The position numbers and the translations under genes are program-made. DNA of 64,000 nucleotides from an uncultured Candidatus Saccharibacteria bacterium (lineage in GTDB: Bacteria > Patescibacteriota > Minisyncoccia > Phycocordibacterales > PALSA-1337), in NCBI GenBank assembly GCA_964558375.1, contig CAZLCD010000001.1:17091-81090 (forward strand), given 5' to 3'. Positions 5,383-34,796 of the stretch are shown here, one piece after another. Under the pieces are notes generated by a model that saw only the letters and a program-made list of their open reading frames with translations, ran no database searches and was not told the DNA's origin. The number at the start of each line of letters is the position of its first letter. The stretch's first letter is position 1.

Positions 5383-8300
5383 TTACCTCTCGATCTTCAT
5401 TTTAAGAGTAAGATCTCCTAGAGTGATCTGTTCTATATCTAAAGACTTAAACTCAATATCTTTTAATAAAGTTGCTTTTAGAATTGTCTCTTTATTTCTT
5501 AAAATCAAATCTGAATTGTCTTTCGATGAATCGATAGCGAGAACTACTTGATCTTTTATAGTCAAATTGCTCTCCTTCCTCAACTCCTGTATCGCTCTTA
5601 TAAGCTCGCGTACTATTCCCTTTTCTTTCAGATCTGGAGTGATGGTTGTATCCAAGACTACTTCTTCGTTAAGATTTTTATCGAAGACAACTTCTAGAAC
5701 ATTGACCTCGTCTTTTATTAACTCGAGCAAATCAGTAGGGATAGATTTCTTTATTGTAAGTTTTGATAGAGGTTGTCTGACATTGATCTTGGCTTTCATG
5801 CGCGCTTCAAGTCCTAGAGATGCCGTTATGCGCACTTCTCTCATATTTTCCAAAACACTATTATCAAATTTTGAAATCTCTGGCCAAGATTCTAAATGAA
5901 CACTTTCCTTCTCGCCCTTTAAACGAAGATAGATATCTTCTGCGATAAAAGGCATAAAAGGTGCCATCAGTTTTGTAAAATCGATAAGTATTTTTCTTAA
6001 GGTGGAAAGTGCCAAATCTCTATCACTCAAGTCTTCTCCTTTAAAACGATCGCGGGATCGACGCAAATACCAAGTCGAAAGATCGTCGACAAAATCCGCG
6101 ATAGGTCTAGAGGCTTTATCGACTTCGTATTTTGAAAGATTATCAGTGATGTCTTTTGTGATTTCATTGAGCCTTGTCATGATCCATATATCGAGAACAT
6201 GAGTACTTGCTGTATCTTTTTTAACTAATTTCTTTTCTAAAATATCAGGTGCGTACATTTCATAAAATGAAACGATATTGTTGAGACGACCGATATGTTT
6301 TTTGACGACTTCATCTACACCCTTTTCGGAAAAGGCAAAATCTTGACCCTTGACCACGGGCGAAGACATGAGGAAGTATCGAAGTGCATCAGCCCCGTAC
6401 TTATCCACCATAAGCATGAGATTTGGATAATTCTTTTTAGACTTTGACATTTTTTGACCATCTTCCGCTAGAACAAGACCGTTAACCACTACTTGTTTGT
6501 ATGGACTTTTGCCGAACAGCGCCACCCCAAGCACAAGCATGGAGTAGAACCATCCACGAGTCTGATCCAAACCTTCGGCGATAAAGTCTGCAGGATAACC
6601 CTTGGTCTTTCCCAAAATTTTACTAAATGGTCCAGGCTTTGGATTGAAGTCGCATTTGTTAAATGGATAATGTGCTTCACCGAAAGGCATAGAGCCGGAT
6701 TCAAACCAACAGTCAAAAACTTCCGGAACTCTTTGCATTTGATTGCCTTTTTCTGAAATAAGTTCTATGTCATCAATGAAAGGTCTATGAAGATCGATCT
6801 CGTATTTTTCATTGTGAGGTAAAGGATGGAAGTCGAGCTTTCTTGGTTTGGAATTTTTATTGTAATGTTCAGCTGAACCACGCAAAGCTATGGACTGCTT
6901 TTCATCCAAACCTTGCACGACGGTCTCGAGAAGGAAGAGTGGTGTATCGTGAGAGACAATTAGGATATTTTGACCCTTGTAACTTTTTTCCATATCATAG
7001 ATAAAATCCCCTACTCTCTTTTTTATATCAGTATAATTTTCACCTCCTTCAGGTGTCTGTGTAAAACGGTCTTTCTGAGCAAAGGCGTGCATAAAATCAT
7101 TGAAGTTTTTACCATTCCACACTCCAGCATTAAGTTCTGTGAGTCTATTGTCAGTTATTATCTTTGAGGCATCCAAATTAAGCTTCTTTGAAATAATTTC
7201 TGCGGTTTCTTTTGTTCTAATAAAAGGAGAAGTAAAAATTAGATCAATCTTTTTATTAGACAACCACTTGGAAGCATCGCTAGCTTGCTTTTTACCCATC
7301 TCACTAAGATGATGCGGATTGTCGGCTCGTGAACTTATGATTGCTTTTGTATTGTTTTCTGCTTCACCGTGCCTGCATACATAGTAAGTATTTCTAGCAT
7401 GACTATACTTTTTTAGATCATTTATAGAGCCTATCACCTTACACTCTTCAGTCTTGATATCCTTCCACACAGGAAGAGGTGCACCCCAGAAACGTGAACG
7501 GGAAATAGCCCAGTCTCGAGCACCGAGAAGCCAATTGCCGAACCTTCCCTCGCCCACCTCCTTTGGAACCCAGTCGATTTTTTTGTTTTCATTTACAAGC
7601 TTGTCGCGAATCGCTGTGACTTTTACAAACCAAGAAGAAGAAGCGTAGTTTAAAAGCGGAGTGTCGCAACGCCAACAATGCGGATACGAGTGAATAATTT
7701 TTTCTTTAGAGAAAAGGATATTTTTGTGAGCAAGGTATTTTATAATCTCAATATCTGCTTTTTGATGAGTTTCTATTTTATTGGCCTTATCCTCTGCTGT
7801 GTCCTTTGGCTTTACATCTTGCCCTGCAAAGTCTGTAACTTCTTTTTTGAATTTACCATCAGTACCAACATGTTGAATAAATGGCAGATTATTTTTTAAA
7901 GATAATTCATAATCATCAGCACCAAAAGCGGGAGCAATATGCACAATACCAGTCCCAGCATCTGTTGTAACAAAATCTGCTCCATAGATCTTCCATCCAT
8001 TCTGGAGATTTTTTAATTTGGCATCATCTGAATAATAATTAAAAATTGGCTCGTAAGACTGGCCGATGAGATCTTTGCCTTCTATCTCTTCGAGGGTTTT
8101 ATACTCTGTCTTTATAACTGATAGTCTGGATTGAGCAAGAATAAACTTTTCATTATTTATTTCTATCTTTATATATTTGATTGAGGGATTTATAGCCAAA
8201 GCCACATTCCCCGGTAAAGTCCAAGGGGTTGTAGTCCATGCCAAGAAAAAAGTATTCGCCTCGCTATTTTTTTCATCTTTCAATTTAAATTTAACATAGA

Positions 8301-8934
8301 CAGAAATATCTGTAATATCTTTATAACCTTGAGTCACTTCAAAATTGGAAAGTGTCGTTTCGCATCGCGGACAAAGGTTCATAGACTTGAACCCTTCGTA
8401 TATCAAACCTTTTTTATAGAGTTCAGCGAAAGCCCACCACACAGACTCGGTGTAGCTTGCATCCATAGTCCTATAATCATTTTCCATATCCACCCACCTT
8501 CCGAGGCGAGGAATTATCTTTCTCCAATCACTTGCATATTTCATCACACTGCCTTGTGCCATGGCATTGAACTTACCTATACCGTAGTCCACAATATCTT
8601 TTTTCGAGGCCAATTTTAATTCTTTCTCAACGATATTTTCTACAGGCAGACCATGACAATCCCAACCCCAACGACGGCGCACCCTATAGCCTTTCATAGT
8701 TTTGAAACGAGGAATAATGTCTTTGATAGTTCCAGGCACTACATGTCCATAGTGTGGCTCTCCAGTCGCAAAAGGTGGTCCATCATAGAAAACAAAGTCA
8801 CCCTTTGGCGAGCTCTTTTCCAAAGTCTTTTTGAAAATATTGTTCTTTTCCCAAAAGGCCAGTATTTTCTCCTCGGTCTCGGCTACCTTGCTTTTCTCTT
8901 GGGTTTTGTCTGTATTTATCGGTTCATTCTGCAT
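5383..8934 (-). CDS. ileS: Isoleucyl-tRNA synthetase carrying an internal histidine-phosphatase-like domain
   Basis: HIGH-type motif (PPFATGEPHYGH), KMSKS present, full-length IleRS similarity. About 190 aa inserted between the WGAPLPVW and DCWFESGS blocks, containing an RHGEAENN motif and a second His motif (LIVSHDTPL) of the histidine phosphatase superfamily. Confidence 0.9.
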   Translation of the reverse strand: MQNEPINTDKTQEKSKVAETEEKILAFWEKNNIFKKTLEKSSPKGDFVFYDGPPFATGEPHYGHVVPGTIKDIIPRFKTMKGYRVRRRWGWDCHGLPVENIVEKELKLASKKDIVDYGIGKFNAMAQGSVMKYASDWRKIIPRLGRWVDMENDYRTMDASYTESVWWAFAELYKKGLIYEGFKSMNLCPRCETTLSNFEVTQGYKDITDISVYVKFKLKDEKNSEANTFFLAWTTTPWTLPGNVALAINPSIKYIKIEINNEKFILAQSRLSVIKTEYKTLEEIEGKDLIGQSYEPIFNYYSDDAKLKNLQNGWKIYGADFVTTDAGTGIVHIAPAFGADDYELSLKNNLPFIQHVGTDGKFKKEVTDFAGQDVKPKDTAEDKANKIETHQKADIEIIKYLAHKNILFSKEKIIHSYPHCWRCDTPLLNYASSSWFVKVTAIRDKLVNENKKIDWVPKEVGEGRFGNWLLGARDWAISRSRFWGAPLPVWKDIKTEECKVIGSINDLKKYSHARNTYYVCRHGEAENNTKAIISSRADNPHHLSEMGKKQASDASKWLSNKKIDLIFTSPFIRTKETAEIISKKLNLDASKIITDNRLTELNAGVWNGKNFNDFMHAFAQKDRFTQTPEGGENYTDIKKRVGDFIYDMEKSYKGQNILIVSHDTPLFLLETVVQGLDEKQSIALRGSAEHYNKNSKPRKLDFHPLPHNEKYEIDLHRPFIDDIELISEKGNQMQRVPEVFDCWFESGSMPFGEAHYPFNKCDFNPKPGPFSKILGKTKGYPADFIAEGLDQTRGWFYSMLVLGVALFGKSPYKQVVVNGLVLAEDGQKMSKSKKNYPNLMLMVDKYGADALRYFLMSSPVVKGQDFAFSEKGVDEVVKKHIGRLNNIVSFYEMYAPDILEKKLVKKDTASTHVLDIWIMTRLNEITKDITDNLSKYEVDKASRPIADFVDDLSTWYLRRSRDRFKGEDLSDRDLALSTLRKILIDFTKLMAPFMPFIAEDIYLRLKGEKESVHLESWPEISKFDNSVLENMREVRITASLGLEARMKAKINVRQPLSKLTIKKSIPTDLLELIKDEVNVLEVVFDKNLNEEVVLDTTITPDLKEKGIVRELIRAIQELRKESNLTIKDQVVLAIDSSKDNSDLILRNKETILKATLLKDIEFKSLDIEQITLGDLTLKMKIER

Positions 8935-10962: not shown

Positions 10963-12186
10963 CTATTTCTTAAGAATCTTATCGATCCTCTCCGCAATCT
11001 TTTTCATATCCTTTTCTTTCTTTCCACGAGTTGTCTCTGCGGCGGTACCGAGTCTTATACCAGAAGGATCTGTAGGAGGTCTAGTGTCGAAAGGTATAGC
11101 GTTTTTGTTTACAATTACCCCCTCTTTTTCTAGTCTATCACTTGCCTCTTTGCCAGAGATTCCTTTGAAGCCATTCTTCTGCGGACTAAAAGTATCGATG
11201 AGTATAAGATGACTATCTGTTCCTCCAGAAATTATTCTCCAGCCATGCTTCGCCAATTCTTCCGCAAGAACTTTTGCATTCTTTTTTACTTGGCTCGCGT
11301 ATTTTTTAAAAGCAGAAGTCGAAGCCTCCTTTAAAGCTACTGCGACCGCGGCAACCTGATTCATGTGTGGACCACCCTGAAGTCCTGGGAAGACGGCTTT
11401 GTCTATAAGGTCACCGATACTATATTCTATATTTTTATTATCTTTATTTGTTTTTGATATTTTTTTATCATTTCTTGAAAAGATAATAGCACTACGAGGA
11501 CCACGGAGAGTTTTGTGGACTGTTGTTGTTACGATATCTGCATATTGGAAAGGGCTTGGATATACCTTACCCGCCACAAGACCTGCGATATGTGACATGT
11601 CTATCATGAGAAGTGCGCCACAACTATCTGCTACTTCGCGAAGTTTTTTAAAATCAATCTGACGAGGGTATGCAGTATAACCACCGACGATTATTGTAGG
11701 CTTTTCCCGCAATGCTATTTCTTTTAATTCATCATAATCAAGAAGCTCGGTATTTTTATTTACTCCATATGGAATCTGTGTCCAAAACTTACCAGTCGCT
11801 GACACTTTGTGACCATGAGTAAGGTGACCTCCTTGATCAAGGGACATGCCCATTATTTTTCCACCCTGAGGAACGAGTGCGAGATACACAGCCAAGTTTG
11901 CCGGCGAACCGGAGAGAGCTTGGACATTTACATGCCAGTCATGAGCCTTAAGATCAAAAAGGTTTAGAGCTCGCTCGATAGCCAAAGACTCTACCTTATC
12001 CACTACTTCATTGCCACCATAATAGCGCTTCATTGGATAACCTTCTGCGTATTTGTTCGTAAGCTCTGAACCAAGAGCCTCAAGAACGTCCTTTGAAACA
12101 TAGTTTTCTGAAGCTATGAGGTTCACAACCGACTTTTGGCGCTTCTTTTCGGTATCAATTAGTTTTTTGATTTGTGTATCTTTCAT
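10963..12186 (-). CDS. glyA: Serine hydroxymethyltransferase
   Basis: Strong SHMT similarity from internal Met (MKDTQIKKLIDTEKKRQ...ASENYVS...). The six-frame ORF extends 53 codons upstream, but the likely true start is the ATG at 12186. Confidence 0.9.
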   Translation of the reverse strand: MKDTQIKKLIDTEKKRQKSVVNLIASENYVSKDVLEALGSELTNKYAEGYPMKRYYGGNEVVDKVESLAIERALNLFDLKAHDWHVNVQALSGSPANLAVYLALVPQGGKIMGMSLDQGGHLTHGHKVSATGKFWTQIPYGVNKNTELLDYDELKEIALREKPTIIVGGYTAYPRQIDFKKLREVADSCGALLMIDMSHIAGLVAGKVYPSPFQYADIVTTTVHKTLRGPRSAIIFSRNDKKISKTNKDNKNIEYSIGDLIDKAVFPGLQGGPHMNQVAAVAVALKEASTSAFKKYASQVKKNAKVLAEELAKHGWRIISGGTDSHLILIDTFSPQKNGFKGISGKEASDRLEKEGVIVNKNAIPFDTRPPTDPSGIRLGTAAETTRGKKEKDMKKIAERIDKILKK

Positions 12187-12429: not shown

Positions 12430-13062
12430 TTAAGTCAATAGTTTTTCCACAGTTTTGAGAAACTCCACCTTCACCTCTTCAAAAGGCCTGTTTGCGTCAA
12501 TCACAACATGTGGAACTTTTTTTAGAAAGATCTTATAGCCCTTTCGCAATAATTTATGAAAATCCACTTCCCTATCATCAAAATGATTGCCTTCTGTATT
12601 CTTAGAATTCCGAGAACGTGCACGCCTCAAACCCTCTTCAACATCTACATCGAGATAAATATAAAGATCGGGTTTTCTTGAGATATGACTTCTCAAATTC
12701 CAAAATAATTTTTCTAGATGTTTACCTTTCTGTGCATGAATCTGATAGGCATAAGAAGAAGCGTCGAAGCGATCAGAGATTACATTTTGACCTTTGGCGA
12801 GAGCAGGTTTTATAAGTTTCTCTACATGGTCAAAGCGCGCGGCGAACATCAGGCATATCATAGTCTCAGCCACAGCGTCTTTGGAAAGTGGGTGCTTGAG
12901 CGCTGTCTCTCTTATAGCTTCAGCGTAACTAGAGCCTCCAGGTTCACGAGTGAGAAGCACGGAGTCTCCAAGCTTTTCTTTGAGAGCCTTTATGAGGGAT
13001 GACTTCCCTGCACCTTCTCCACCTTCTATTACAATAAATTTGGGTTGTTGATGTTTAGTCAT
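12430..13062 (-). CDS. tmk: Thymidylate (dTMP) kinase
   Basis: P-loop IEGGEGAGKSS, TREPGG motif, length about 210 aa. Confidence 0.85.
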   Translation of the reverse strand: MTKHQQPKFIVIEGGEGAGKSSLIKALKEKLGDSVLLTREPGGSSYAEAIRETALKHPLSKDAVAETMICLMFAARFDHVEKLIKPALAKGQNVISDRFDASSYAYQIHAQKGKHLEKLFWNLRSHISRKPDLYIYLDVDVEEGLRRARSRNSKNTEGNHFDDREVDFHKLLRKGYKIFLKKVPHVVIDANRPFEEVKVEFLKTVEKLLT

Positions 13063-13135
13063 TGGAAATATTCTAGCATAGAAAAAGCGAGGTACTGTAC
13101 TTTGACAGCCCTCGCGTGAAAAGTGCGTGATGCGA

Positions 13136-13876
13136 TTATTTGGGAGGAGCCACTACCCCTCTTGTCATAACAACTGAATCCGCAGTGCTAGTTAGACCAC
13201 ATGCGCAAGTTTCCAATGTGCAATTCGGGCATCCTTTCCCAAAGACACTCAGATATTCTGCCATCAGACTCATTGGAAACCCCTGGAGCTCAGAAATTGT
13301 ATTCGCAACCGCAAACAAATTCGCGATTACATCAACAAGCTCCAACACCACTTCTTCGAAGAGTTTATTAGTGTGGCGAGCTACGTAGTCGATATATGCT
13401 TCGAGTAATTCTGCACCCTCTTCAGTTAGATGTGCTCCTGAATCCACTAAAGTGTTTTGAGGATAAATTCCTGCAAACATGAATTGCAGTCCAGCAACCG
13501 AAAGTGGGACGGGTAAATTTCCAGCTGGAGTTTCCAAACCTCTTACACTCGCCCGCTTATTGCCACAGGCACAAGGTGCTGTAGTGCAGTAGGGACAAAC
13601 TCCGGGAAATCTTTTCCTGACTTCCATATCCAGATCCAACGATAGGTGATTTGCCAGTGCCAAAGACCAGGAAAAAGCCATTACCGTACCTCTTCTGATA
13701 TCTTCTGCCTTGCCCTTACGAATCCCTTTGGTTGCTATAGTTGCGTAACGCAAGATCTTCATACACATTTGTGTAGGGCTGTACACTCGGCTATTTTGTA
13801 GCCAATATATTTCCCGATTTAAAGACTGAACATGGTAGAAGCTAACCCTTTCAGGGGGCGGTAGTATAGTGAGCAT
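13136..13876 (-). CDS. MazG/DCTPP1-like all-alpha NTP pyrophosphohydrolase domain protein with two CPxC-x4-CxC cysteine clusters
   Basis: Core EEGAELLEAY...EEVVLELVDVIANLFAVAN resembles the DCTPP1/MazG EVGELAELFQW...QEELSDVLIYLVALA helices. Two near-identical Cys motifs (CPYCTTAPCACG, CPNCTLETCACG). Local GC content is clearly higher (about 45%) than flanking genes. The start codon is uncertain. Confidence 0.45.
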   Translation of the reverse strand: MLTILPPPERVSFYHVQSLNREIYWLQNSRVYSPTQMCMKILRYATIATKGIRKGKAEDIRRGTVMAFSWSLALANHLSLDLDMEVRKRFPGVCPYCTTAPCACGNKRASVRGLETPAGNLPVPLSVAGLQFMFAGIYPQNTLVDSGAHLTEEGAELLEAYIDYVARHTNKLFEEVVLELVDVIANLFAVANTISELQGFPMSLMAEYLSVFGKGCPNCTLETCACGLTSTADSVVMTRGVVAPPK

Positions 13877-13937
13877 ATTTTTATTTAATTGTGATTGTTT
13901 CTGTCTGAATAAAACCTATCACCACTCATGAAAAATA

Positions 13938-14360
13938 TCAATTCCCCGTACTTCCAAAACCTCCTTTACCTCTAGCGGTCTCTGTGAGATTTTCTACTTC
14001 ATCGAACTCTACATGCTCTACTTTTTGAATGAGAAGCTGAGCGACTTTGTGTCCTTTTTCAAATTTAAAACTTTCCTCTGAAAGATTCATAAGACCGACA
14101 TGGATTTCACCTCTGTACCCAGAATCTATTACCCCTCCGAAAGTTTTTATCCCATACTTATGCGACAAACCACTTTTATCCCAGATCAATCCCACATACC
14201 CTTCTGGGATTTCTATAGCAATACCGACTGCTATAGATTTCCTTTCTTGAGGATCCATCTTGAAAGCATCGATAGCAAATAGATCCATGCCTGCATCACC
14301 AGGATGAGCGTGTTTTGGAATCTGAGCATCTGGATGGAGTTTTTTAATTTTGATTTTCAT
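13938..14360 (-). CDS. dut: dUTP diphosphatase (trimeric dUTPase)
   Basis: dUTPase motifs (GVIDSGYRGE, RGKGGFGSTG), 140 aa. Confidence 0.9.
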   Translation of the reverse strand: MKIKIKKLHPDAQIPKHAHPGDAGMDLFAIDAFKMDPQERKSIAVGIAIEIPEGYVGLIWDKSGLSHKYGIKTFGGVIDSGYRGEIHVGLMNLSEESFKFEKGHKVAQLLIQKVEHVEFDEVENLTETARGKGGFGSTGN

Positions 14361-14361
14361 T

Positions 14362-14853
14362 TTATTTTTTAAATTGATTCCCTATTATATTATTAACATT
14401 TTTTTTATTAAAATGGATCTCAGAATTTTCTAAGAGGTAAATCGTTTTGATTTTTACTTTAGCCATCCTATCGCGACACCACCGACAAAGCCACCAATGG
14501 CCCCATAGATACAGCTCTGATCCAGTTAGATCAAAACCTTTAACCAAAGCATCTTCTATAGCCTTAACTTCGCTATGATTTTTGGGATGACAGCCTTCAC
14601 ACAATTCATAGCCTTGTCCAGTTGGTATATTCAATCTTACTCGTTCACAAATATTAGAATTATGATAATCACTACCATTTGTGCCGTATCCAATAATGTT
14701 TTTATTCGAGACAATTACAGAGCCAGCTGGCATTGTCTTATCTAAGGAATATAACCTTGCATACTCCTTTGCAGCAGACATATAGACATTGTCCACAGGA
14801 ACATACCCTTGTATAAAGGGCTCTTCGAAATAATCTTCTTCTGATTCATCCAT
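14362..14853 (-). CDS. dCMP deaminase family (ComEB/DCTD-like zinc deaminase)
   Basis: HxE (HSEVKAI) and CxxC (LCRWC) catalytic zinc motifs, plus an upstream CEGCH cluster typical of the dCMP deaminase second zinc site. There is a 1-nt spacer to dut. Confidence 0.7.
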   Translation of the reverse strand: MDESEEDYFEEPFIQGYVPVDNVYMSAAKEYARLYSLDKTMPAGSVIVSNKNIIGYGTNGSDYHNSNICERVRLNIPTGQGYELCEGCHPKNHSEVKAIEDALVKGFDLTGSELYLWGHWWLCRWCRDRMAKVKIKTIYLLENSEIHFNKKNVNNIIGNQFKK

Positions 14854-14906
14854 ATTAGAATTAATTATTATTGTAGTATATAATAAATCTACTTTAAAGG
14901 CATACT

Positions 14907-15743
14907 ATGACAAAATTTGACGAAATCTACAGAGACCTTGTTAGCAACATAATGACAAATGGTATTGCCGAAATTTCCGAAAGAACTCGTCAAGAAACTA
15001 GAGCCATACCGGGCGCACACTTCTCTATTGATCTCGAAAAGGACGGCTTCCCACTTTTAACTTTAAGAAAAATCCCCATCAAGATGTTCGTAGCTGAACA
15101 AGTCTGGTTTATCTCTGGGGCACGTAAACCAGAAATATTTTTGAGAGATTACACAAAGATCTGGGATTTTTTTACAAACCCTGGAGATGTAGTAACTGTC
15201 GCTTATGGTTATAGATGGAGAAAACATTTTGGACGTGATCAGCTTGCCCTTTTGATCGATCTACTTGAAAAAGAACCTAGTTCTAGACAGGGAGTAATTA
15301 TAACTTGGGATCCAGCGCAAGATGGACTATCTTTGGCTAAGAAAAAAAATGTGCCTTGTCCATATTCATTTACAGTAAACATAATAGGCGGAAGACTTCA
15401 TCTGCATAATATAGTCAGATCGAATGACATAATATTAGGTTGTCCTAGCGATGTCGCTGGTTTCGCCTTACTTCAATGTATACTTGCACAACGGCTTGGT
15501 GTAAAACCAGGAATATATTCTCACTCTATTTCCAATGCTCATATATATGACAATCACTATGAAGGTGCGGAAAAAATAATATCGAGGACCAATGATCATC
15601 CGACTATAAAACTTGAATTACCAGAAAATGCTTTTACACTCGCAGAAAAGATGGATAAGGGATTAACTGATGCTATAATAGAAAATCTAACAAAACAGTA
15701 TGCTCCAATGGAAGCAATACAGGGTTTAAAAATTGCAATATAG
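14907..15743 (+). CDS. Thymidylate synthase (ThyA) fold enzyme with Asp at the dUMP-specificity Asn position (possible dCMP-directed methylase/hydroxymethylase)
   Basis: Gap-free alignment to E. coli ThyA across the active site: PCPYSFTVNIIGGRLHLHNIVRSNDIILGCPSDVAGFALL vs [40 protein letters not shown]. Catalytic Cys, Glu58, Asp169, His207 and Tyr209 are conserved. Asn177 is replaced by Asp, Arg127 by Gln and His147 by Pro. Confidence 0.85.
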   Translation: MTKFDEIYRDLVSNIMTNGIAEISERTRQETRAIPGAHFSIDLEKDGFPLLTLRKIPIKMFVAEQVWFISGARKPEIFLRDYTKIWDFFTNPGDVVTVAYGYRWRKHFGRDQLALLIDLLEKEPSSRQGVIITWDPAQDGLSLAKKKNVPCPYSFTVNIIGGRLHLHNIVRSNDIILGCPSDVAGFALLQCILAQRLGVKPGIYSHSISNAHIYDNHYEGAEKIISRTNDHPTIKLELPENAFTLAEKMDKGLTDAIIENLTKQYAPMEAIQGLKIAI

Positions 15744-15754
15744 AAAATAAAATT

Positions 15755-16390
15755 ATGTCCGTAATCACAAAAAACAAAATACTTGAAAAGATAAAGTCTG
15801 GAGATATTTCATTTAAGCCAGAACTAGATACCTTTCAGTTACAAGGCCATTCAGTAGACTTGCGCTTAGGCTTTACCTTCATGATACCCAAGTCTTGGCA
15901 TATGACACCAAAGGGCCGAGAAGCTTTCGACATTACTCATTTTGACAAAAAGTCTAGTGAATATTTCGATATAATAGAGCTAGAACAAGGACAATATTTC
16001 GACTTGTTACCTCATGAATATATACTCGTTGCTACTTTTGAGAAAATAAAATTGCCAGATAATATCATGGCTATCCTCTACCCTCGTTCATCTACAAATA
16101 GAAAAGGTATGTCACTAGACCTCACGGGGATTATCGATGCTGGATACGAAGGACAATTGATTTTACCTATCAGAAACAACACTCATTCACAGACAGTGAG
16201 ACTATACCCCGGCGAGAGACTTTGCCAAGTAGTGTTCGAAGAACTTTCTGATTCAGTAGAACATAAAAGTAAATACCACAACAAAGATGTGATCGATGGT
16301 GTTCAAAAAGAAAAGAAAGATGAGGTGGATTTTATAATGAAAGGAGATATTAAAGGTCTTAAAGGACAGTTTAAGGTAGGGTTGGAATAA
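15755..16390 (+). CDS. dcd: dCTP deaminase
   Basis: Dcd motifs (DLRLG, GIIDAGYEGQLILPIRN), about 210 aa. Confidence 0.85.
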   Translation: MSVITKNKILEKIKSGDISFKPELDTFQLQGHSVDLRLGFTFMIPKSWHMTPKGREAFDITHFDKKSSEYFDIIELEQGQYFDLLPHEYILVATFEKIKLPDNIMAILYPRSSTNRKGMSLDLTGIIDAGYEGQLILPIRNNTHSQTVRLYPGERLCQVVFEELSDSVEHKSKYHNKDVIDGVQKEKKDEVDFIMKGDIKGLKGQFKVGLE

Positions 16391-16411: not shown

Positions 16412-17617
16412 TTAAATATTTCCACCATCGGTTTCACTATACGGTCTGATTATGAACTTACCCTGATCTCTTAATGTTTTTTCAGTCTCGTCTGGATTTG
16501 AGGAAATAATATTACCTGCTTCATAGAAAAACTTGGAGTCTCTGGCATAATTATCCAAGATAACTTTGAAGGTACTTGCATCAGCCCCCTCTAACTTTTT
16601 GTGGCCATAGTAAACAGAAACTCCGTCACTCATGTATATATCATAACTACCACCACATCCTATATATGTTGTATTCTGTGTTAGTAGTTTAAATGTTTCT
16701 GGATTAATTCCTTCTATCTTTTTTCCATCATAGAAAACATGACTTCTATCTCTAGATATATAGTGCCAACAAATATTAGCATCTTCATATGACTCATCTA
16801 TATTCCCCCAAACAATAGTTTTGAAGGTTTGTGGGTCTGCATCAATAATTATTTGACCTTTATAATAAACATTATTTTTATCCAAAGTATAGAGGTGTTT
16901 CTTATCTATATTTGAATTAAATTTATTTTCCAAAAGCTTAAACGAGTTTGGATCAGCTCCTTCTATTTCTTTAAAAACATTAGAGGAAGAAGATGCTATA
17001 TAAGTTAGTTTATAGATTTTGTTGTCAACCCAAATATAATCCCGTGATATCGGTTTTATGTTTTTTCCTTTTAATTCCTTATACTCTGTGAAGCCACGAC
17101 CATTAGAATAGCTGTAAATATTATCTTTATCTTTAAAATACGCGTAGCCCAGATAAGTGGCGTCGACTGATGGTGCTAAAAATCTATCGACCTTGGAATC
17201 GCGATAACCAATAAAAGAATAGAAATCTTTTGCTATATGCGGTAAGTTATCATCAATTGATACAAAAGAAGAACTATCGACGAGAGGTTGTATACTAACT
17301 CCAGATATATCAGATATTCTGGTATCTATACTCCATACAAACAAGCGATCTTTCACAAACCAACTATTTACAGCTTGAAATCCATCTTGCGTAAAAGGAG
17401 TTTTTCTGAAACAGAAATCATAGTGAGTGGTACAAACTTTTATGTATATATCATCACCAATCGTATATAACTTAAAATGTGAATTGAAAAGTTTAGGTTC
17501 TTCAAGTTTTTTATCTTCTTGTCGTTGATTCGCATATAATGTAAACATAGAAATTATTGCGATGATAATCACAACATATACAACTACTATTTTTATCTTT
17601 AGGTTTAATTTATCCAC
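16412..17617 (-). CDS. Membrane-anchored DKNYY repeat family protein
   Basis: N-terminal TM helix, then repeated DKNNVYYKGQ...ADPQTFK / DGKKIEGINPETFK / EGADASTFK units characteristic of DKNYY-type repeats. Confidence 0.55.
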   Translation of the reverse strand: MDKLNLKIKIVVVYVVIIIAIISMFTLYANQRQEDKKLEEPKLFNSHFKLYTIGDDIYIKVCTTHYDFCFRKTPFTQDGFQAVNSWFVKDRLFVWSIDTRISDISGVSIQPLVDSSSFVSIDDNLPHIAKDFYSFIGYRDSKVDRFLAPSVDATYLGYAYFKDKDNIYSYSNGRGFTEYKELKGKNIKPISRDYIWVDNKIYKLTYIASSSSNVFKEIEGADPNSFKLLENKFNSNIDKKHLYTLDKNNVYYKGQIIIDADPQTFKTIVWGNIDESYEDANICWHYISRDRSHVFYDGKKIEGINPETFKLLTQNTTYIGCGGSYDIYMSDGVSVYYGHKKLEGADASTFKVILDNYARDSKFFYEAGNIISSNPDETEKTLRDQGKFIIRPYSETDGGNI

Positions 17618-17637
17618 TTTTATAATTTATAATTAAA

Positions 17638-18288
17638 CTAGAGAAATTTAATCGAGTCTAAAATATGGTTAAATATCTTTCTACAGTTTTCAGTTTGTTT
17701 ACGTGTTCTGTCAGGATTTAATTTTAAAAAATCATAGTTAGTAAAATTCACAGAATCGTAATTACAAGCAGATTGCGTTAGTCCCACAAATCTATTTTCT
17801 TTTCTATAAAACCCTTTCAATGAATGACCTATTTCCAAATCACCCTCATATATAGTCATTCTGGTATCTGTTTTATATTTATCTTTTGTGATTTCCTTAT
17901 CGAACTCTGGGAATATATCTTGCTCTACTATATCTGTACTGCGTGGATCTGTAGGTATCAAGATAGTATTTTTTTGAGAATATATCCTTATCTCATGATA
18001 GCCCATATTATATCGATCATACTTAGCGGTTTTACCTATAGGGATAATCATAGATATGGTGCCGTCATCCCTATCTTCAGAAAGAAAGTCTTTTTTAATA
18101 TAGTCAAATGAGATACCTAGTTCAGCATTTTCTTTTCTTTCCCAAACTATATTTTCATAGTCAATATCTATGAATAATCCATCGTCTTTATTATTTTTAT
18201 AGATATAAAAACTAGTACAGATTATAAGAAATATAACCACATAAGATATTATTACGGATGATTTTAAATTTAACTTCCTCATATCCAT
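17638..18288 (-). CDS. Hypothetical membrane-anchored protein
   Basis: Single N-terminal TM helix (VIISYVVIFLIICTSFYIY), no recognisable domain. Confidence 0.4.
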   Translation of the reverse strand: MDMRKLNLKSSVIISYVVIFLIICTSFYIYKNNKDDGLFIDIDYENIVWERKENAELGISFDYIKKDFLSEDRDDGTISMIIPIGKTAKYDRYNMGYHEIRIYSQKNTILIPTDPRSTDIVEQDIFPEFDKEITKDKYKTDTRMTIYEGDLEIGHSLKGFYRKENRFVGLTQSACNYDSVNFTNYDFLKLNPDRTRKQTENCRKIFNHILDSIKFL

Positions 18289-18311
18289 AATTTATCATTA
18301 AATTGGATAAA

Positions 18312-18346
18312 TAAAAAGGGAGCCTACAGTGAAGTAGACTCCCGTG
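18312..18346 (-). terminator. Hairpin terminator downstream of the M23 peptidase gene
   Basis: gggagcctac / gtagactccc 9-10 bp stem followed by a T-run on the minus strand (A-run 18312-18320 on plus). Confidence 0.4.
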
Positions 18347-18377
18347 AATTGGGTTATTACCCAGGAAACAAAGAGCT

Positions 18378-20471
18378 TTACGGATTGAGCCAGAGGTTTG
18401 GTTCAATCACTTTTTCGTCTTGAGCGAATTTGCCATATGGATCAACAACCCTAAGCATTTTAGAATTGTTGTCGGTACGCCAAACTGAAAAATGGAGGTG
18501 GGGTTTTTCAGCACCTTTATCTCCAACTTTACCAATAATTGCACCTTTTGTGACCGACACACCACTTTTAGGTTTCCAGTTATTGGCATCAGTTTTATCT
18601 ACAAACGCAGACTCAATGTCTGATAAATGCAAATAGCGTGTATAGTAACCGTTATTATGATCAATGATTAGTCCATGGAATTCTCTCATGTTATCAGATG
18701 GTAATGTTGTAAACTTTTCACCTTGATAACTCTCGAATTTACTTAGGTCATCCGGCCCAACTGTTTTACCACTCGCTGGGGCATATATAATTGTTCCTAT
18801 TCCATATGGATAATCATAACCATCGTGACCATCATATTGAAGAGCTGAGGGACCTGCTTTTACTGTACCTACATAATCGAAAGGTAAATTGAGAACACTT
18901 TGAACTGTGGGCAGTATGATAGATAATCCACCATCACTTATCCTTACAGTCCCTTCGATTGCATGAATAAATTCTTCTCCAGCTTTTAAGACTGGAAAGA
19001 TATCTCCATTAAGGGTAAGTATGAACTTATCGACAGCATTTTCACCTGCAAACCTTTTCCCGTGATCCATAATTGCAGACACTTTTGCATCTACAAGTTT
19101 GATACCTGGTGCCAATGGGAAGCTTAGGAAAGGTTGGATCGATAGTTTGTCGTAGAATGCCCATCGGAACATCTCACTACTATTTGGATTCCGAATCGAT
19201 TGCTCTTTAAGATCTATCCTCTCAGCTGTATCTCCAGTGAATTCTTTTGCAGTCAGTGGTGCCCATCCTGTACCATCCTTCGAGGACTCCATCACCTGTA
19301 TATATCCAACTTGAGTCGCAGGTGCCTGAACGATTTCAGGACGAGTAGGTTCAGGGAAGCTTACAAGTTCTACTGGCTGACGACGGAATAGCAGAGTCAT
19401 TGCTGTACTGTGAGCCGTAATACTGAATGTATAGTCTTGGCTCACAGAATACAGATCGGAATCATCACTCTTCCACTCCAAGAACCTATGTCCAGAAGCA
19501 GGATTAGCTTTGAGCGTAACTCTAGTGCCTGCAGGAAACATATAGCTGTTTCCTGCAGCTGGCACAATACCGCCACCTACATCCGATGGATCGATAGTAT
19601 AGGAACCATTTCCATTAACATTTATTGTAAGTTCATAGAGTTTCGGCTTGAAGGCAACATTCACGGTTTTATTGGCTGTGACGCGCGATAGAGTGTAAGT
19701 ATTACCGCCAGTTTGAACTCTGGAGTTATTTACAAACCATTTGTCGATTTCATAATCTGAGTTAGCAGTAGCAGTGAAGCTCAAGCTACTATAGCCTTCT
19801 GCAGATAAGCTTCCTGCGGGACTGATATTTCCACCACTACCGGCAGATGCGTTCACAGTATAGACATTTCTAACAACTTTTAACACGACATCATCTATTC
19901 GAAATGTCGTATACAAGTTATTGTCAGTTTTGACTTTGAACATCAGATAGCATGAAGCTGCCGCCACAAGATCACCGAGAACCAACGAATGTGATTTCAG
20001 TGAGTAATTTCTTGAATCATTGTTTTGATCTTTATTCTTGTTTGAGTAATGAGCAAGAGGTTCTTCATGCGCCAAATCCCCATTGTAATCCAAAAATCTC
20101 AACATAACATCGAGCTTATCGTATTCCAACGATGTACCTTCGGCACTTGTGACATTAAGATAATAACTTACCTCAATCCTGTCTGCAGAGTCTTCCGGCT
20201 TAGGAAGTATGTACTGATAGAGTGCACCGTCTGCACTAAATGTCGTAGAATTCACATCTCCCAGGTATCCATAGTAAGATCCATTGCGAGCATTGACTCC
20301 TTGGATTATCCCAGCGCTTGTTGTAGCGCCTCCAGTATAACGAGTGATAGACCATGAGGATCTATTGTTTTCAAAACTACCGCCTAGTATTCCATCTCTG
20401 GATACTTCGCTCGATTTCAATGTAAAAACAGTGAGCACGAGCATCGACAAGCAGACAATTAACTTCTTCAT
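18378..20471 (-). CDS. Secreted M23 (LytM-type) metallopeptidase with large N-terminal beta-rich domains
   Basis: Signal peptide (MKKLIVCLSMLVLTVFTLKS). C-terminal M23 motifs: HxxxD (GHDGYD), YTRYLHLS, HLHF (HxH). Confidence 0.75.
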   Translation of the reverse strand: MKKLIVCLSMLVLTVFTLKSSEVSRDGILGGSFENNRSSWSITRYTGGATTSAGIIQGVNARNGSYYGYLGDVNSTTFSADGALYQYILPKPEDSADRIEVSYYLNVTSAEGTSLEYDKLDVMLRFLDYNGDLAHEEPLAHYSNKNKDQNNDSRNYSLKSHSLVLGDLVAAASCYLMFKVKTDNNLYTTFRIDDVVLKVVRNVYTVNASAGSGGNISPAGSLSAEGYSSLSFTATANSDYEIDKWFVNNSRVQTGGNTYTLSRVTANKTVNVAFKPKLYELTINVNGNGSYTIDPSDVGGGIVPAAGNSYMFPAGTRVTLKANPASGHRFLEWKSDDSDLYSVSQDYTFSITAHSTAMTLLFRRQPVELVSFPEPTRPEIVQAPATQVGYIQVMESSKDGTGWAPLTAKEFTGDTAERIDLKEQSIRNPNSSEMFRWAFYDKLSIQPFLSFPLAPGIKLVDAKVSAIMDHGKRFAGENAVDKFILTLNGDIFPVLKAGEEFIHAIEGTVRISDGGLSIILPTVQSVLNLPFDYVGTVKAGPSALQYDGHDGYDYPYGIGTIIYAPASGKTVGPDDLSKFESYQGEKFTTLPSDNMREFHGLIIDHNNGYYTRYLHLSDIESAFVDKTDANNWKPKSGVSVTKGAIIGKVGDKGAEKPHLHFSVWRTDNNSKMLRVVDPYGKFAQDEKVIEPNLWLNP

Positions 20472-20664: not shown

Positions 20665-21183
20665 ATGATCAAAGTCTTCATCATCGCTGCGGTTAGTGCC
20701 GATGGTTTCATAGCCAAGGACAGCCAACATGCCGCCCTTTGGACCAGCAAGGCCGACAAGAAGCGCTTTATCGAGCTTACCAAGCGTGCAGGAGTGGTGG
20801 TTATGGGCTCTACAACTTACAAAACTTTGGGGAGGCCACTTAAGGAGCGCGTCAATATTGTATATTCCAAAAATCAAAGTTTCGAAGGTGCAGAAGTTAC
20901 ACAAGATAATCCAAAAGATTTAATTAAAAAACTCGAAGAAAGAGGTTTTAAAGAATTAGCCATCTGTGGTGGATCTCATATATATTCTATGTTTCTAAAA
21001 GCAGGAGTAGTAGATACTATTTTTCTAACCATAGAGCCGATTATTTTTGGTAAAGGTATTACCCTATTCAATGAGGATTTGCATTACTTTTTAAAATTAA
21101 AAAACTCTCAAGCCTCAGAAAGTTCCGGATCACTTCTTTTAGAATATTCTGTCGATTATAGTGGAGCACCGAAGTTAAGTTAG
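20665..21183 (+). CDS. folA: Dihydrofolate reductase
   Basis: DHFR pattern IAAVSADGFIA...VVMGSTTYKTLGRPLKERVNIVYS...ICGGSHIY matching E. coli [24 protein letters not shown]...IGGGRVY. Confidence 0.7.
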   Translation: MIKVFIIAAVSADGFIAKDSQHAALWTSKADKKRFIELTKRAGVVVMGSTTYKTLGRPLKERVNIVYSKNQSFEGAEVTQDNPKDLIKKLEERGFKELAICGGSHIYSMFLKAGVVDTIFLTIEPIIFGKGITLFNEDLHYFLKLKNSQASESSGSLLLEYSVDYSGAPKLS

Positions 21184-23527: not shown

Positions 23528-24334
23528 TTAGGCATTATAACAGGCATCGATGAGATTTTCAAATAAAGCGAGCACCGTCATCTGCCCCACACCACCAGGC
23601 ACAGGAGTGATCATACCCACAATATCTTTTACTTTTTCAAAATCTACATCCCCTACCAGTCTCTCTTCTAGCCTAGTAATGCCGACATCGACCACTATCT
23701 GCCCTTCTTTAAAGAATTTTTGATCAAAGAAAAGTGCTCTGCCAGTAGCCAAGATAACAATATCTGCATCTTTTGTTTTTTCAGCGGTGTTTTCTGTACC
23801 TTTATGGCAGACAGTAACGATAGCGCCTTCTTCATGACACATACGAGATATAGGCTCTCCTACGAGTTTGGAACGACCAACTATAGTAACCTTTTTTTGA
23901 GCCAAGTTGATTTTATAAAATTTAAACAATTCCTTTACCCCACGCGCTGTGGCTGGCATAAACTTTGTATTGCAATTCAAACCATCGATATCTTTAGAGG
24001 CGTTTATAGAATTTAAAATAATTTCGGAATTTAAATGTGAAGGTAAAGGCAATTGAGTGATGATGCCGTGCACCTCTTTATCATTATTGTATTTTTCTAT
24101 TATTTTAATTAGCTCATCTTGTGTGATCCTTTCATCGAGTTGTACATGAACTTCCTTGATTCCCATTTTTTGCGCAAAGCTTTTCTTGGCTTTAATATAA
24201 GAATCTGAATCTGCTCTATTGCCAACTTGGATTATCACTAGGCAAGGCAATACAGAAAGACCTTCGATCCTTGTTTTTAAAAAAGAAGTATAGTGCTCGC
24301 GTGCTTTTCTTCCATCAAGAATAATTGCTGTCAT
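23528..24334 (-). CDS. folD: Bifunctional methylene-THF dehydrogenase/methenyl-THF cyclohydrolase
   Basis: FolD similarity throughout (ILDGRKA..., GRSKLVGEPISRM, PVPGGVGQMTVLAL). Confidence 0.9.
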   Translation of the reverse strand: MTAIILDGRKAREHYTSFLKTRIEGLSVLPCLVIIQVGNRADSDSYIKAKKSFAQKMGIKEVHVQLDERITQDELIKIIEKYNNDKEVHGIITQLPLPSHLNSEIILNSINASKDIDGLNCNTKFMPATARGVKELFKFYKINLAQKKVTIVGRSKLVGEPISRMCHEEGAIVTVCHKGTENTAEKTKDADIVILATGRALFFDQKFFKEGQIVVDVGITRLEERLVGDVDFEKVKDIVGMITPVPGGVGQMTVLALFENLIDACYNA

Positions 24335-32088: not shown

Positions 32089-32143
32089 ATTCGAACCCAA
32101 AATACCCCCTGTTTTTATACAGAAGTAACCTAATATAACGATG

Positions 32144-32215
32144 GGTGCCCAGAGAGAATCGGACTCTCGACTCAGGTTCCACAAACCCGGGTTTTACCAC
32201 TAAACTATGGGCACC
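32144..32215 (-). tRNA. tRNA-His (anticodon GTG) with encoded G-1
   Basis: Cloverleaf on the minus strand: 8-bp acceptor including G-1:C73, D-stem GTTT/AAAC, anticodon loop TTGTGGA, T-arm GAGAG-TCCGATT-CTCTC. No CCA encoded. Confidence 0.8.
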
Positions 32216-32310
32216 ATATCACGCTTAGCTATTATATCAGCAAAACGTTGTGTCTCAACACTATCATGATGTACTAGAAAATGGCAATTGGATACCTATA
32301 AATTCATTAG

Positions 32311-32394
32311 TGCCCAGGAGAGGACTCGAACCTCCACGCCCGTGAGGGCTTATCCACCTCAAGGATAAATGTCTACCAGTTTCAACACCTGGGC
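32311..32394 (-). tRNA. tRNA-Leu (anticodon GAG), long variable arm
   Basis: Minus strand GCCCAGG acceptor, anticodon stem TATCC/GGATA with loop TTGAGGT, long variable arm, T-arm GGAGG-TTCGAGT-CCTCT. Confidence 0.8.
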
Positions 32395-32415
32395 ATTTAA
32401 AACCAAACAAAAACC

Positions 32416-32853
32416 CTAAGCCGCCACTTCTTCCTCCTTCTTCTCTTCAGCTACTACTGCATCGTGTTTTGTATCTGTATTCTGATCCTTATCAATAGAA
32501 AGCATACGGCGCATCTGGCGGCGGATTTCTTTTGCAGCCTTTTCACGCACAAAGTAAAGCTTTGCTCGGCGAACCTTAGAACGACGTAGAAGTTCAACCT
32601 TATCGATCATAGGAGTGTATAGAGGGAAGATCTTCTCAACACCCACACCATCGATCACCTTTCTTACAGTAAATGTAGCTCCGGCTTCAGTACCGTGCTT
32701 ACGAGCTAGAACCAAGCCTTCGAAAGCCTGTAGACGTGTCTTACCCTTCTCTTGAATCTTTTGCCAAACTTTCACAGTATCTCCAGGTTTAATATCCAGA
32801 GTCTTTCTCTCTTCTATCTTAACGGATGAAATAATATTAGTATTTGTTGCCAT
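32416..32853 (-). CDS. rplS: 50S ribosomal protein L19
   Basis: Conserved L19 sequence (PGDTVKVWQKIQEKGKTRLQAFEGLVLARKH...FTVRKV). Confidence 0.9.
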   Translation of the reverse strand: MATNTNIISSVKIEERKTLDIKPGDTVKVWQKIQEKGKTRLQAFEGLVLARKHGTEAGATFTVRKVIDGVGVEKIFPLYTPMIDKVELLRRSKVRRAKLYFVREKAAKEIRRQMRRMLSIDKDQNTDTKHDAVVAEEKKEEEVAA

Positions 32854-32880
32854 AATTTTTATTGTGTAGTGTAGACAAAT

Positions 32881-33627
32881 CTAACACAGCTCCTTGATTT
32901 TCGCAACTTCAGCGATACCTAGTTCAGTAAAAGCATTTATAAAGTCCTTAGGAATTGGAGCTTTTACTAAGATCTTTTTACCAAGAACATTTGTGAAATT
33001 TATACTATAAGCATGTAGAGCATTCCTAGTAAAACCTATTGTATTGGTCTTTTCTGGAGCATAAAGCCCGTCGCAGACAACAGGATGGTTTAAAGCCTTA
33101 AAGTGAACACGGATCTGATGAGTTCGACCGGTCTTGGGTTCAACCTCAAGGAAAGAGTACCCCCCTCTAGTAGAGATAAGGGTGTACCAAGTCTCCGCAT
33201 CACGAAGCTCCCCTCTTGCGCCACGAGTGGCTGACCATCGACGAAAGTCTTTTGGACTTCTACCTATTGGACGATTTATAATACCAAACTGATCTTTTAT
33301 TTCTCCATATACGAAAGTAAGATACTTTTTGACAAGTGTTCTCTCTTGAAACTGCTCTTTGAGACATGCATGCCCTGCTTTTGTCTTGGCTATAAGAAGT
33401 ACACCAGAAGTATCACGATCAAGCCTATGTACGATGCCCGGACGCTCTATGACACCATAGTCCTTAGTCTCTATTGGCTCTCCAACATTCTTAGTCTTTG
33501 GATAATTTTCCAAAACCCAATCCGTGATGAATGGACCTTTTGACTTTCCGTCTGGATGTATGACAATACCCGCAGGCTTGTCTATGGCCACAATGTCTTT
33601 GTCTTCGTATAAGATAGGGATTTGCAT
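32881..33627 (-). CDS. RluA-family pseudouridine synthase (start trimmed)
   Basis: HRLDRDTSGVLLIAKT motif. The six-frame ORF runs into the tRNA-Val gene, so the start was reassigned to the ATG at 33627 (MQIPILYEDKDIVAIDKPAG). Confidence 0.8.
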   Translation of the reverse strand: MQIPILYEDKDIVAIDKPAGIVIHPDGKSKGPFITDWVLENYPKTKNVGEPIETKDYGVIERPGIVHRLDRDTSGVLLIAKTKAGHACLKEQFQERTLVKKYLTFVYGEIKDQFGIINRPIGRSPKDFRRWSATRGARGELRDAETWYTLISTRGGYSFLEVEPKTGRTHQIRVHFKALNHPVVCDGLYAPEKTNTIGFTRNALHAYSINFTNVLGKKILVKAPIPKDFINAFTELGIAEVAKIKELC

Positions 33628-33641
33628 AGCTTGGGTTCTAG

Positions 33642-33714
33642 TGCGCGATGCAGGACTCGAACCTGCGACCTTTCCAGTGTAAATGGATTGCTCTACCAAC
33701 TGAGCTAATCGCGC
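33642..33714 (-). tRNA. tRNA-Val (anticodon TAC)
   Basis: Minus strand GCGCGAT acceptor, D-arm GCTC-AGTTGGTA-GAGC, anticodon loop TTTACAC, T-arm GCAGG-TTCGAGT-CCTGC. Confidence 0.8.
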
Positions 33715-33767
33715 ATTAAGATTTATTTATACACTAATAAATAGGAAAATTCAAGGATAATTTGTAA

Positions 33768-33812
33768 AAAAATTAAAATCACCTCCTACAAAATAGAAAG
33801 TGATTTTAATTA
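33768..33812 (-). terminator. Hairpin terminator downstream of the DUF378 gene
   Basis: 9-bp stem taaaatcac...gtgatttta followed by a T-run on the minus strand. Confidence 0.4.
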
Positions 33813-33840
33813 AATCTTATGTTCCTAACCTCCCTACAAT

Positions 33841-34092
33841 CTACACTGCTGAACTTGTTTCACAGCAATCCTTACAAGTTTTCTTATGTGTAACGATAAG
33901 ATAAATAGCTGATAGACCTACTAGTATATAGACTACTTTTGCGATAACTGCAGGCAAGTATTCTACTATACCCATACCTGAAGCACCCAAACCTAGACCA
34001 ACCAATAACCAATTCAAGCCTCCTACGATAACCAAAATAAATGCAATTGTGTGTAATACTTTCATAATATTTGATAAATTATTAATAATCAA
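33841..34092 (-). CDS. DUF378-like small membrane protein
   Basis: LVIVGGLNWLLVGL motif typical of DUF378, two TM helices. The start may be the internal MKVLHT. Confidence 0.5.
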   Translation of the reverse strand: MIINNLSNIMKVLHTIAFILVIVGGLNWLLVGLGLGASGMGIVEYLPAVIAKVVYILVGLSAIYLIVTHKKTCKDCCETSSAV

Positions 34093-34793: not shown

Positions 34794-34796
34794 AAA

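Follow-up and report, generated by a model that had tools for sequence, protein, structure and literature searches.

The question raised by this locus is which pyrimidine deoxynucleotide, deoxyuridylate (dUMP) or deoxycytidylate (dCMP), receives the methyl group that makes it thymidylate (dTMP). The locus is a divergent cluster of six genes at positions 12430–16390 of the 64,000-nucleotide stretch analysed here (the window), which comes from contig CAZLCD010000001.1 of an uncultured Candidatus Saccharibacteria bacterium (assembly GCA_964558375.1). One of the six encodes a homologue of thymidylate synthase (ThyA) in which an active-site asparagine is replaced by aspartate. To our knowledge textbook biochemistry has dUMP methylated to dTMP in every cell, by ThyA or ThyX, and we know of methylation first and deamination second only from phage Xp12 and its relatives. 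We put at about one in two the probability that this cluster, Parcubacteria-wide, runs from deoxycytidine triphosphate (dCTP) through dCMP, 5-methyl-dCMP and dTMP to thymidine diphosphate (dTDP), that is, by way of 5-methyl-deoxycytidylate and not of deoxyuridylate. The chemistry is already known from phages; what would be new is to find it conserved in the chromosomes of a class of ultra-small bacteria as their thymidylate module, where the deaminase is of another kind and one protein derives from dCTP deaminase (Dcd).

The evidence begins with the active site of the synthase. The segment GCPSDVAGFALL of the window ThyA aligns with the matching segment of solved thymidylate synthases, and the window motif GCPSDVAGF pairs with GVPFNIASY of those enzymes. 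Asp182 thereby falls opposite E. coli Asn177, Pro152 opposite His147, Asn148 opposite Leu143, Cys151 opposite Cys146 and Asp174 opposite Asp169, so that the asparagine-to-aspartate switch reported in the first-pass annotation is real. In dUMP-type ThyA, Asn177 hydrogen-bonds O4 and N3-H of uracil and His147 belongs to the same network. The window protein has the fold and the catalytic cysteine of such an enzyme, with Asp and Pro in place of the uracil-binding network. A mutant E. coli synthase, N177D, is said to methylate dCMP.

None of this is peculiar to one genome. Asp182 is present in all 81 sequences compared, namely the window protein and 80 orthologues, each from a different Parcubacterial genome; their loci were taken as 10 kb to either side of thyA. 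Cys151, Asn148, Arg171, Ser172 and Asp174 are likewise invariant (81/81; the last three correspond to E. coli Arg166, Ser167 and Asp169), and Pro152 occurs in 78 of the 81. Such invariance in active-site residues speaks for a functional enzyme under constraint and against a gene in decay. The protein belongs to a large family of 2,406 matches, the best 120 of which are 72–100% identical.

Residue 177 has been found to set the choice between dUMP and dCMP and residue 143 that between methylation and hydroxymethylation, while D169N marks the 5-hydroxy-dCMP synthases (PMC13326640). As cited in PMC13326640 and bioRxiv 10.1101/2024.12.05.627091, the experiments of Liu and Santi (1992, 1993) and Graves et al. 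(1992) turned specificity from dUMP to dCMP by the Asn177 to Asp change; the L. casei mutant N229D, described through the same two sources, carries this single substitution at the same position and methylates dCMP. Those engineered synthases are laboratory products of poor activity, whereas in the window protein the aspartate occurs naturally, does not vary among orthologues and comes with other conserved changes.

The nearest phage relatives of the window ThyA are the thymidylate synthase homologues of Xanthomonas phages Mallos and Xp12 and of Achromobacter, Pseudomonas, Rhodobacter and Ruegeria phages; by BLASTP the Xp12 enzyme is 35% identical (E 7e-55). A signature table in E. coli numbering has the Parcubacterial and Xp12-clade proteins agreeing at D177, N143, P147, F83 and D169, whereas canonical synthases carry N177, L143, H147 and W83 and the hydroxymethylases an acidic residue (D) at 143. 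The D177/N143/D169 pattern is identical in Xp12, Mallos, Axy14, RcRudolph, ZQG1 and Tedan. Both groups also have the motifs YGYRWRxHFGRDQL and WDPAxDG...KNVPCP and a four-residue insertion ahead of the catalytic Cys151. Against profile hidden Markov models (HMMs) the Parcubacterial proteins score 224 bits with the Xp12 clade, 160 with canonical ThyA and 117 with the hydroxymethylases; in the reverse direction the scores are 172–192 against 91–135. Judged from its sequence, the window ThyA has every testable feature of the Xp12-type dCMP methyltransferases, and we predict that it is a dCMP C5-methyltransferase releasing dihydrofolate. The Xp12 enzyme yields 5-methyl-dCMP in vivo, as do five of seven Asp-type homologues from metagenomes; Asp-type enzymes are typically linked to genes of the dCMP deaminase family, and the linked deaminases convert 5-methyl-dCTP to thymidine triphosphate (dTTP) (bioRxiv 10.1101/2024.12.05.627091; for the Xp12 deaminase, PMC12088426). 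The latter paper cites work from 1982 on "a new thymidylate biosynthesis".

The genes around thyA fit the same picture. The coordinates and strands assigned in the first-pass annotation to the six open reading frames (ORFs) of the cluster agree with the ORF list, and glyA, folA and folD were all found near them, as it had stated:

10963–12186, minus strand, glyA, serine hydroxymethyltransferase, which regenerates 5,10-methylene-tetrahydrofolate (from the ORF translation)
12430–13062, minus strand, tmk, dTMP kinase (TIGR00041, 149 bits, cutoff 83)
13136–13876, minus strand, Cys-rich two-lobed all-alpha protein of the MazG superfamily, 246 amino acids
13938–14360, minus strand, dut, canonical trimeric deoxyuridine triphosphatase (dUTPase) (TIGR00576, 156 bits; NF001862, 151 bits)
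14362–14853, minus strand, zinc nucleotide deaminase with a divergent CDA fold, dCMP-deaminase-like (PF00383, E 6.6e-10, a weak match)
14907–15743, plus strand, ThyA homologue with the Xp12-type signature (PF00303, E 1.3e-52)
15755–16390, plus strand, Dcd-family protein with the trimeric dUTPase fold (TIGR02274, 118 bits, cutoff 92.8)
20665–21183, plus strand, folA, dihydrofolate reductase (DHFR) (PF00186, E 2.3e-18)
23528–24334, minus strand, folD, methylene-tetrahydrofolate dehydrogenase/cyclohydrolase (PF02882, E 4e-53; PF00763, E 5e-31)

The start of glyA was set at the methionine that matches its orthologues (that of locus L072 begins MKDIQIKK). The gaps are short, as had been claimed: 73, 61 and 1 bp on the minus strand, the last between the deaminase gene and dut, 53 bp in the divergent spacer between the deaminase gene and thyA, and 11 bp from thyA to the dcd-like gene. 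FolD provides folate-cycle context and is outside the conserved core.

Among the 80 Parcubacterial loci the conserved unit is glyA-tmk-(dut)-deaminase on one side, divergent from thyA(Asp)-dcd-like-folA on the other. The deaminase gene divergently adjoins thyA in 77 loci, and in 77 a dcd-like gene lies downstream of thyA; folA is adjacent to thyA or the dcd-like gene in 65. glyA belongs to the cluster in 63 loci and tmk in 53, and dut is found no more than 10 kb from thyA in 36.

In phage Xp12 and its relatives the genes for the hydrolase, thymidylate synthase, deaminase and DHFR stand side by side. Of 44 IMG/VR loci with an Xp12-type synthase, 43 have the D/NP signature, 40 an Xp12-type deaminase, 33 a DHFR and 41 a MazG/HAD-type hydrolase (a pyrophosphatase). 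The window module resembles that of Xp12 in the synthase signature and in its linkage to a CDA-fold deaminase, DHFR and a nucleotide pyrophosphatase, and the phage supplies a documented precedent for thymidylate formed by deamination of a 5-methyl-deoxycytidine nucleotide. Unlike the phage module, it is chromosomal and class-wide in bacteria, with an identity of only about 35%; its deaminase is of another subfamily, a Dcd-derived protein fills the slot of the MazG/HAD pyrophosphatase, and tmk, dut and glyA are linked. None of the 44 phage synthases exceeds 44% identity with the window ThyA, and none of the 44 loci has the Parcubacterial deaminase or dcd-like gene. These two results together indicate that the Parcubacterial clade is cellular and not a phage contaminant.

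The second departure from the canonical pathway lies in the Dcd-like protein. Its best PDB matches are B. halodurans 4xjc, which we take to be a bifunctional Dcd:dut, and the M. tuberculosis bifunctional Dcd:dut 2qlp, both ahead of E. coli Dcd. Glu138 is the deamination catalyst in E. coli Dcd, of which 1xs4 and 2v9x are presumably the deposited E138A and E138D structures. Opposite this residue there is proline in all 77 orthologues, the motif TLE(L/F)xN of Dcd and Dcd:dut enzymes reading ILPIRN in the window protein. Glutamate is found there in E. coli, 4xjc, M. tuberculosis 2qlp/2qxx and the variant 4a6a, and 9ln0, a chain deposited as dCTP deaminase, has methionine. In the alignment with E. 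coli Dcd there is also a one-residue deletion at Ala124; Ser111, Arg115 and the aspartate of the "ID" motif are kept. This aspartate (D128) is the catalytic aspartate of dUTPase motif III (E. coli Dut D90, M. tuberculosis D83), and D83N inactivates the M. tuberculosis enzyme (PMC5519681). D128 and the two serines of P-R-S-S are invariant or nearly so, the arginine is present in 75 of 78 sequences, and Asp122 is newly invariant among the orthologues (n=77).

On these residues the protein, although annotated as dCTP deaminase in Parcubacteria, almost certainly does not deaminate. Its ancestor was probably Dcd:dut-like, with nucleotide binding kept, pyrophosphate release probably kept as well and deamination lost. 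It is thus probably a deoxynucleoside triphosphate pyrophosphatase, for which conversion of dCTP to dCMP or of deoxyuridine triphosphate (dUTP) to dUMP would be alike possible from sequence. The earlier claim of a complete set of genes for the way from dCTP to dTDP is therefore unsupported at the first step, dCTP to dUTP, and the idea of a tidy housekeeping cluster is weakened by the loss of the glutamate. Two independent changes in one lineage, Asn to Asp in the synthase and Glu to Pro in the dCTP deaminase, both point away from uracil intermediates. Phage T4 gp56, tried as a relative of the Dcd-like protein, proved unrelated.

Gene 14362–14853 might supply the final deamination. H93-x-E95 and C123-x-x-C126 are invariant among its orthologues, and so are C69, C85, C88 and H119. 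Of the earlier assignment to the two-zinc type, the HxE and CxxC motifs stand outright, and the other four residues are consistent with a second metal site. The family is divergent, scoring 18 bits with the dCMP deaminase equivalog TIGR02571 against a cutoff of 219; it has about 1,050 members, labelled deaminase or deoxycytidylate deaminase in Patescibacteria. A confident AlphaFold2 model (predicted local distance difference test, pLDDT, 89) has as its top Foldseek matches three dCMP deaminases, 4p9e from cyanophage S-TIM5, 1vq2 from T4 and 7fh4 from chlorovirus PBCV-1; TadA and RibD rank lower. The enzyme is predicted to convert 5-methyl-dCMP (or 5-methyl-dCTP) to the thymidine nucleotide.

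What is observed directly is which genes are present, which active-site residues they encode and how invariant these are, the kinship of the synthase with the Xp12 clade and the conserved linkage; from this we infer each substrate and product of the following route. The Dcd-derived protein would split dCTP into dCMP and pyrophosphate, and could retain feedback by dTTP. The Asp-type ThyA would move the one-carbon unit of 5,10-methylene-tetrahydrofolate to C5 of dCMP and reduce it, giving 5-methyl-dCMP and dihydrofolate, with FolA and GlyA recycling the folate cofactor. The divergent zinc deaminase would then turn 5-methyl-dCMP (or 5-methyl-dCTP) into dTMP (or dTTP), and Tmk would phosphorylate dTMP to dTDP. 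Dut would hold dUTP low, and where a small MazG or the Cys-rich protein is also present, as in a minority of lineages, it may act similarly. Phage T4 offers a parallel in gp56, gp42 and Cd, where a nucleoside triphosphate pyrophosphatase feeds dCMP to an Asp-type synthase homologue with a dCMP deaminase alongside. Unlike the window enzyme, gp42 hydroxymethylates, has D at 143, lacks the C-terminal tail and needs no DHFR for that step. The window ThyA has a synthase-like C-terminus, and this tail and the DHFR linkage would fit reductive methylation, not hydroxymethylation. The suggestion that dCMP is the methyl acceptor and is deaminated afterwards is partly supported overall, having gained strength from the invariance of the aspartate, the Xp12 signature and profile scores, and the linkage of deaminase and DHFR.

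Several observations weigh against this route. In a neighbour-joining tree the Parcubacterial proteins and Xp12 fall together, but their exclusive grouping has a bootstrap of only 0.55, because two long-branch phage sequences (hydroxymethylases) intrude; the tree method being simple, clade affinity was judged instead on profile scores, shared insertions and deletions, and signature residues. At about 35%, the window ThyA is no closer in overall identity to the Xp12 clade than to some canonical synthase cores (Brucella, 36% over the conserved core). No similarity between the window deaminase and that of Xp12 is detectable by BLASTP, which rules out the phage enzyme as its orthologue; if the two have the same role, this would be a non-orthologous replacement. 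The Dcd-like protein could, from its sequence, equally be a second dUTPase. A canonical dut is present in the operon here and in 36 of the 80 loci, and both proteins would then supply dUMP, which is useful only to a dUMP-using synthase. A free pool of 5-methyl-dCMP risks uncontrolled incorporation of 5-methylcytosine, and the cluster has no conserved dedicated safeguard. A second thymidylate synthase, ThyX, may lie outside the loci of 10 kb to either side; no ThyX motif was found in a scan of the window ORFs, a scan uninformative at that scale. Finally the 80 loci form one clade, which makes the association of D177 with P138 effectively a single evolutionary event.

A rival reading is ordinary housekeeping, in which the Asp-type ThyA methylates dUMP, the deaminase supplies it from dCMP, Dut and the Dcd-like protein (as a dUTPase) supply it from dUTP, and Tmk, FolA and GlyA complete the route. 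We regard this as possible but unlikely. All the genes do belong to families of the canonical bacterial pathway (Dcd or Dcd:dut, Dut, ThyA, FolA, Tmk), dut stands within the operon, and the cluster shares with that pathway the thyA-folA synteny that usually accompanies true thymidylate synthases (PMC11974145). Its strong conservation beside argS and ribosomal-protein genes would suit an essential housekeeping function. A Dcd-like protein without the glutamate exists among solved structures (9ln0) and may be a dUTPase. The window ThyA passes the thymidylate synthase model TIGR03284 (124 bits, cutoff 108); against this, it fails NF002497 (143 bits against 327) and the remaining NF models. It departs from the canonical enzyme at three sites, where Asn177, His147 and Leu143 are replaced by Asp, Pro and Asn respectively, and every one of its signature residues is common to experimentally verified dCMP methylases. 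The shift from dUMP to dCMP caused by Asn177 to Asp in the studies cited in PMC13326640 and bioRxiv 10.1101/2024.12.05.627091 runs counter to a dUMP substrate. The loss of Glu138 from the Dcd homologue of the same lineage is also hard to explain if dUMP is the key intermediate.

A more radical reading, which we consider improbable, is an Xp12-like cell in which dCTP is depleted, 5-methyl-dCTP is supplied, cytosine in DNA is largely or wholly 5-methylcytosine and dTTP is drawn off by deamination. The parts list of pyrophosphatase, Asp-type synthase, deaminase and DHFR is that of phages with fully 5-methylcytosine DNA, and the Dcd-like protein could deplete dCTP. A motif scan found no ORF resembling a C5-DNA-methyltransferase in 1.24 Mb around the cluster, a very weak indication, uninformative at that scale. 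The linked kinase, however, is a canonical dTMP kinase, which indicates dTMP as intermediate, and no dedicated 5-methyl-dCMP kinase is linked. We found no literature report of globally modified DNA in Patescibacteria, and long-read assemblies (the MFD isolates) are among the loci; these assemblies are presumably nanopore-based. The sequence demands nothing of the kind. That Parcubacteria go beyond routing thymidylate through 5-methyl-dCMP and replace most or all chromosomal cytosine as Xp12 does is in our view very improbable; if true, it would be the first cellular lineage with wholesale base substitution at the level of the nucleotide pool, and might protect its own DNA while host nucleic acids are scavenged.

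A different C5 product, 5-hydroxymethyl-dCMP or 5-hydroxy-dCMP feeding hypermodification of the T4 or RB69 type, is scarcely credible, since the Asp177 common to dCMP hydroxymethylases and 5-hydroxy-dCMP synthases comes here with Asn at 143 and not the Asp or Glu typical of hydroxymethylases, with Asp169 and not the Asn diagnostic of 5-hydroxy-dCMP synthases (RB69 gp48 type), with the lowest of the three profile scores for the hydroxymethylase HMM (117 bits), with a DHFR linkage that implies dihydrofolate production and with no glycosyltransferase or kinase module conserved in the cluster across the 80 loci, so that the T4-like cytosine hypermodification entertained in the first-pass annotation is unlikely.

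Should the route through 5-methyl-dCMP be correct, one of the largest uncultivated bacterial radiations would make T from C in the opposite order. More than 2,000 database protein clusters of Patescibacteria now annotated "thymidylate synthase" or "dCTP deaminase" would need revision, as would metabolic reconstructions of Patescibacteria symbionts. Where the phage dCMP methylases came from would again be in question, since transfer between cell and phage could have gone in either direction, and pool-derived 5-methylcytosine in Patescibacteria genomes would become a question. Published Patescibacteria reconstructions label the gene plain thyA. We found no paper on the Asp variant, the distribution of ThyX, a Dcd without its glutamate, a 5-methyl-dCMP pathway or global 5-methylcytosine in Patescibacteria, and a search of PHROGs returned family names only.

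The remaining gene of the cluster encodes the Cys-rich protein, which had been described as DCTPP1-like and as a sanitiser of modified dCTP partnered with the Asp variant. Searches of Pfam, NCBIfam and the PDB with its 246-residue sequence gave no match. It belongs to an unnamed family of seven close homologues, reaching 1,127 representative clusters by profile search. The family profile matches MazG 1vmg (E 2.8e-4), and its members give marginal matches to Pfam MazG. An EExxE...ExxD metal motif in the C-terminal lobe and two CxxC-x4-CxC knuckles are invariant. The four-helix MazG-type fold and this motif are those of the superfamily that unites MazG, the dimeric all-alpha dUTPases and DCTPP1, and membership in it is borne out; a specific similarity to DCTPP1/RS21-C6 is not. 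T4 gp56 is likewise all-alpha, but there is no significant profile match between the two (hhalign probability 0.6), and it was rejected as a direct relative. The gene occurs in only one of the 80 related loci, which marks it as an accessory with no conserved tie to the Asp variant and speaks against the proposed partnership. Its closest homologues with usable context stand amid unrelated genes, and it has the highest G+C content within the cluster. Judged by sequence, the protein is a pyrophosphatase-like member of the MazG superfamily and a lineage-specific accessory insertion.

Some members of the Cys-rich family (P0264, P0271) carry a C-terminal GGDEF diguanylate-cyclase fusion, which hints at nucleotide sensing and not purely house-cleaning. 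Between the Cys-rich gene and tmk (about 13085–13115) there is a GC-rich inverted repeat, GCGAGG...CCTCGC, followed by a T-run on the minus strand. It looks like an intrinsic terminator directly after the Cys-rich gene. The automatic scan for terminators had no match there, probably because of the long loop, and the promoter and terminator scan of the cluster gave no decisive signal.

A small canonical MazG gene lies within the thymidylate cluster of seven of the 80 loci: L072 (11609–11947, plus strand), L034, L040, L056, L078 and L086 (about 8400–8740, minus strand) and L081 (2921–3250). In five of the seven it occupies the slot downstream of the deaminase gene where other genomes have dut, and in the six other than L072 it follows either the deaminase gene or the dcd-like gene. 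In L072 a distant copy of the Cys-rich gene lies beside folA, and the small canonical MazG gene overlaps the stop of the dcd-like gene. Taken with the Cys-rich and dcd-like genes, these occurrences suggest that pyrophosphatases of three different folds have been repeatedly recruited to the cluster.

In most relatives the dcd-like gene and folA are neighbours. Here three minus-strand genes (16412–20471) separate them, encoding a DKNYY-family protein, a 216-residue hypothetical protein and a 697-residue M23 peptidase with InlB B-repeat-like domains. The G+C content of the block is low (0.29–0.32 for the DKNYY-family and hypothetical proteins), and it looks like an insertion that has displaced folA by about 4 kb.

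Further neighbours in the window include genes for isoleucyl-tRNA synthetase (IleRS), arginyl-tRNA synthetase, RecO, L11, NusG and PolA, besides tRNAs. These neighbours and the names borne by homologues assign the window to a chromosome of the Parcubacteria/Paceibacteria (Patescibacteria). The IleRS-like protein (5383–8934, minus strand, 1183 residues) contains a His_Phos_1 domain at residues 518–678, which sits within the class I synthetase core and interrupts the tRNA-synt_1 match. The most GC-rich stretch of the window, 46000–50000 (0.42–0.44 against 0.38 overall), contains a 490-residue ORF at 47760–49232 on the plus strand that has no Pfam match. Six tRNA genes (His, Leu, Val, Arg, Ser and Lys) are found at 32143–40608, amid genes for a pseudouridine synthase and for PilM-like and VTT-domain proteins.

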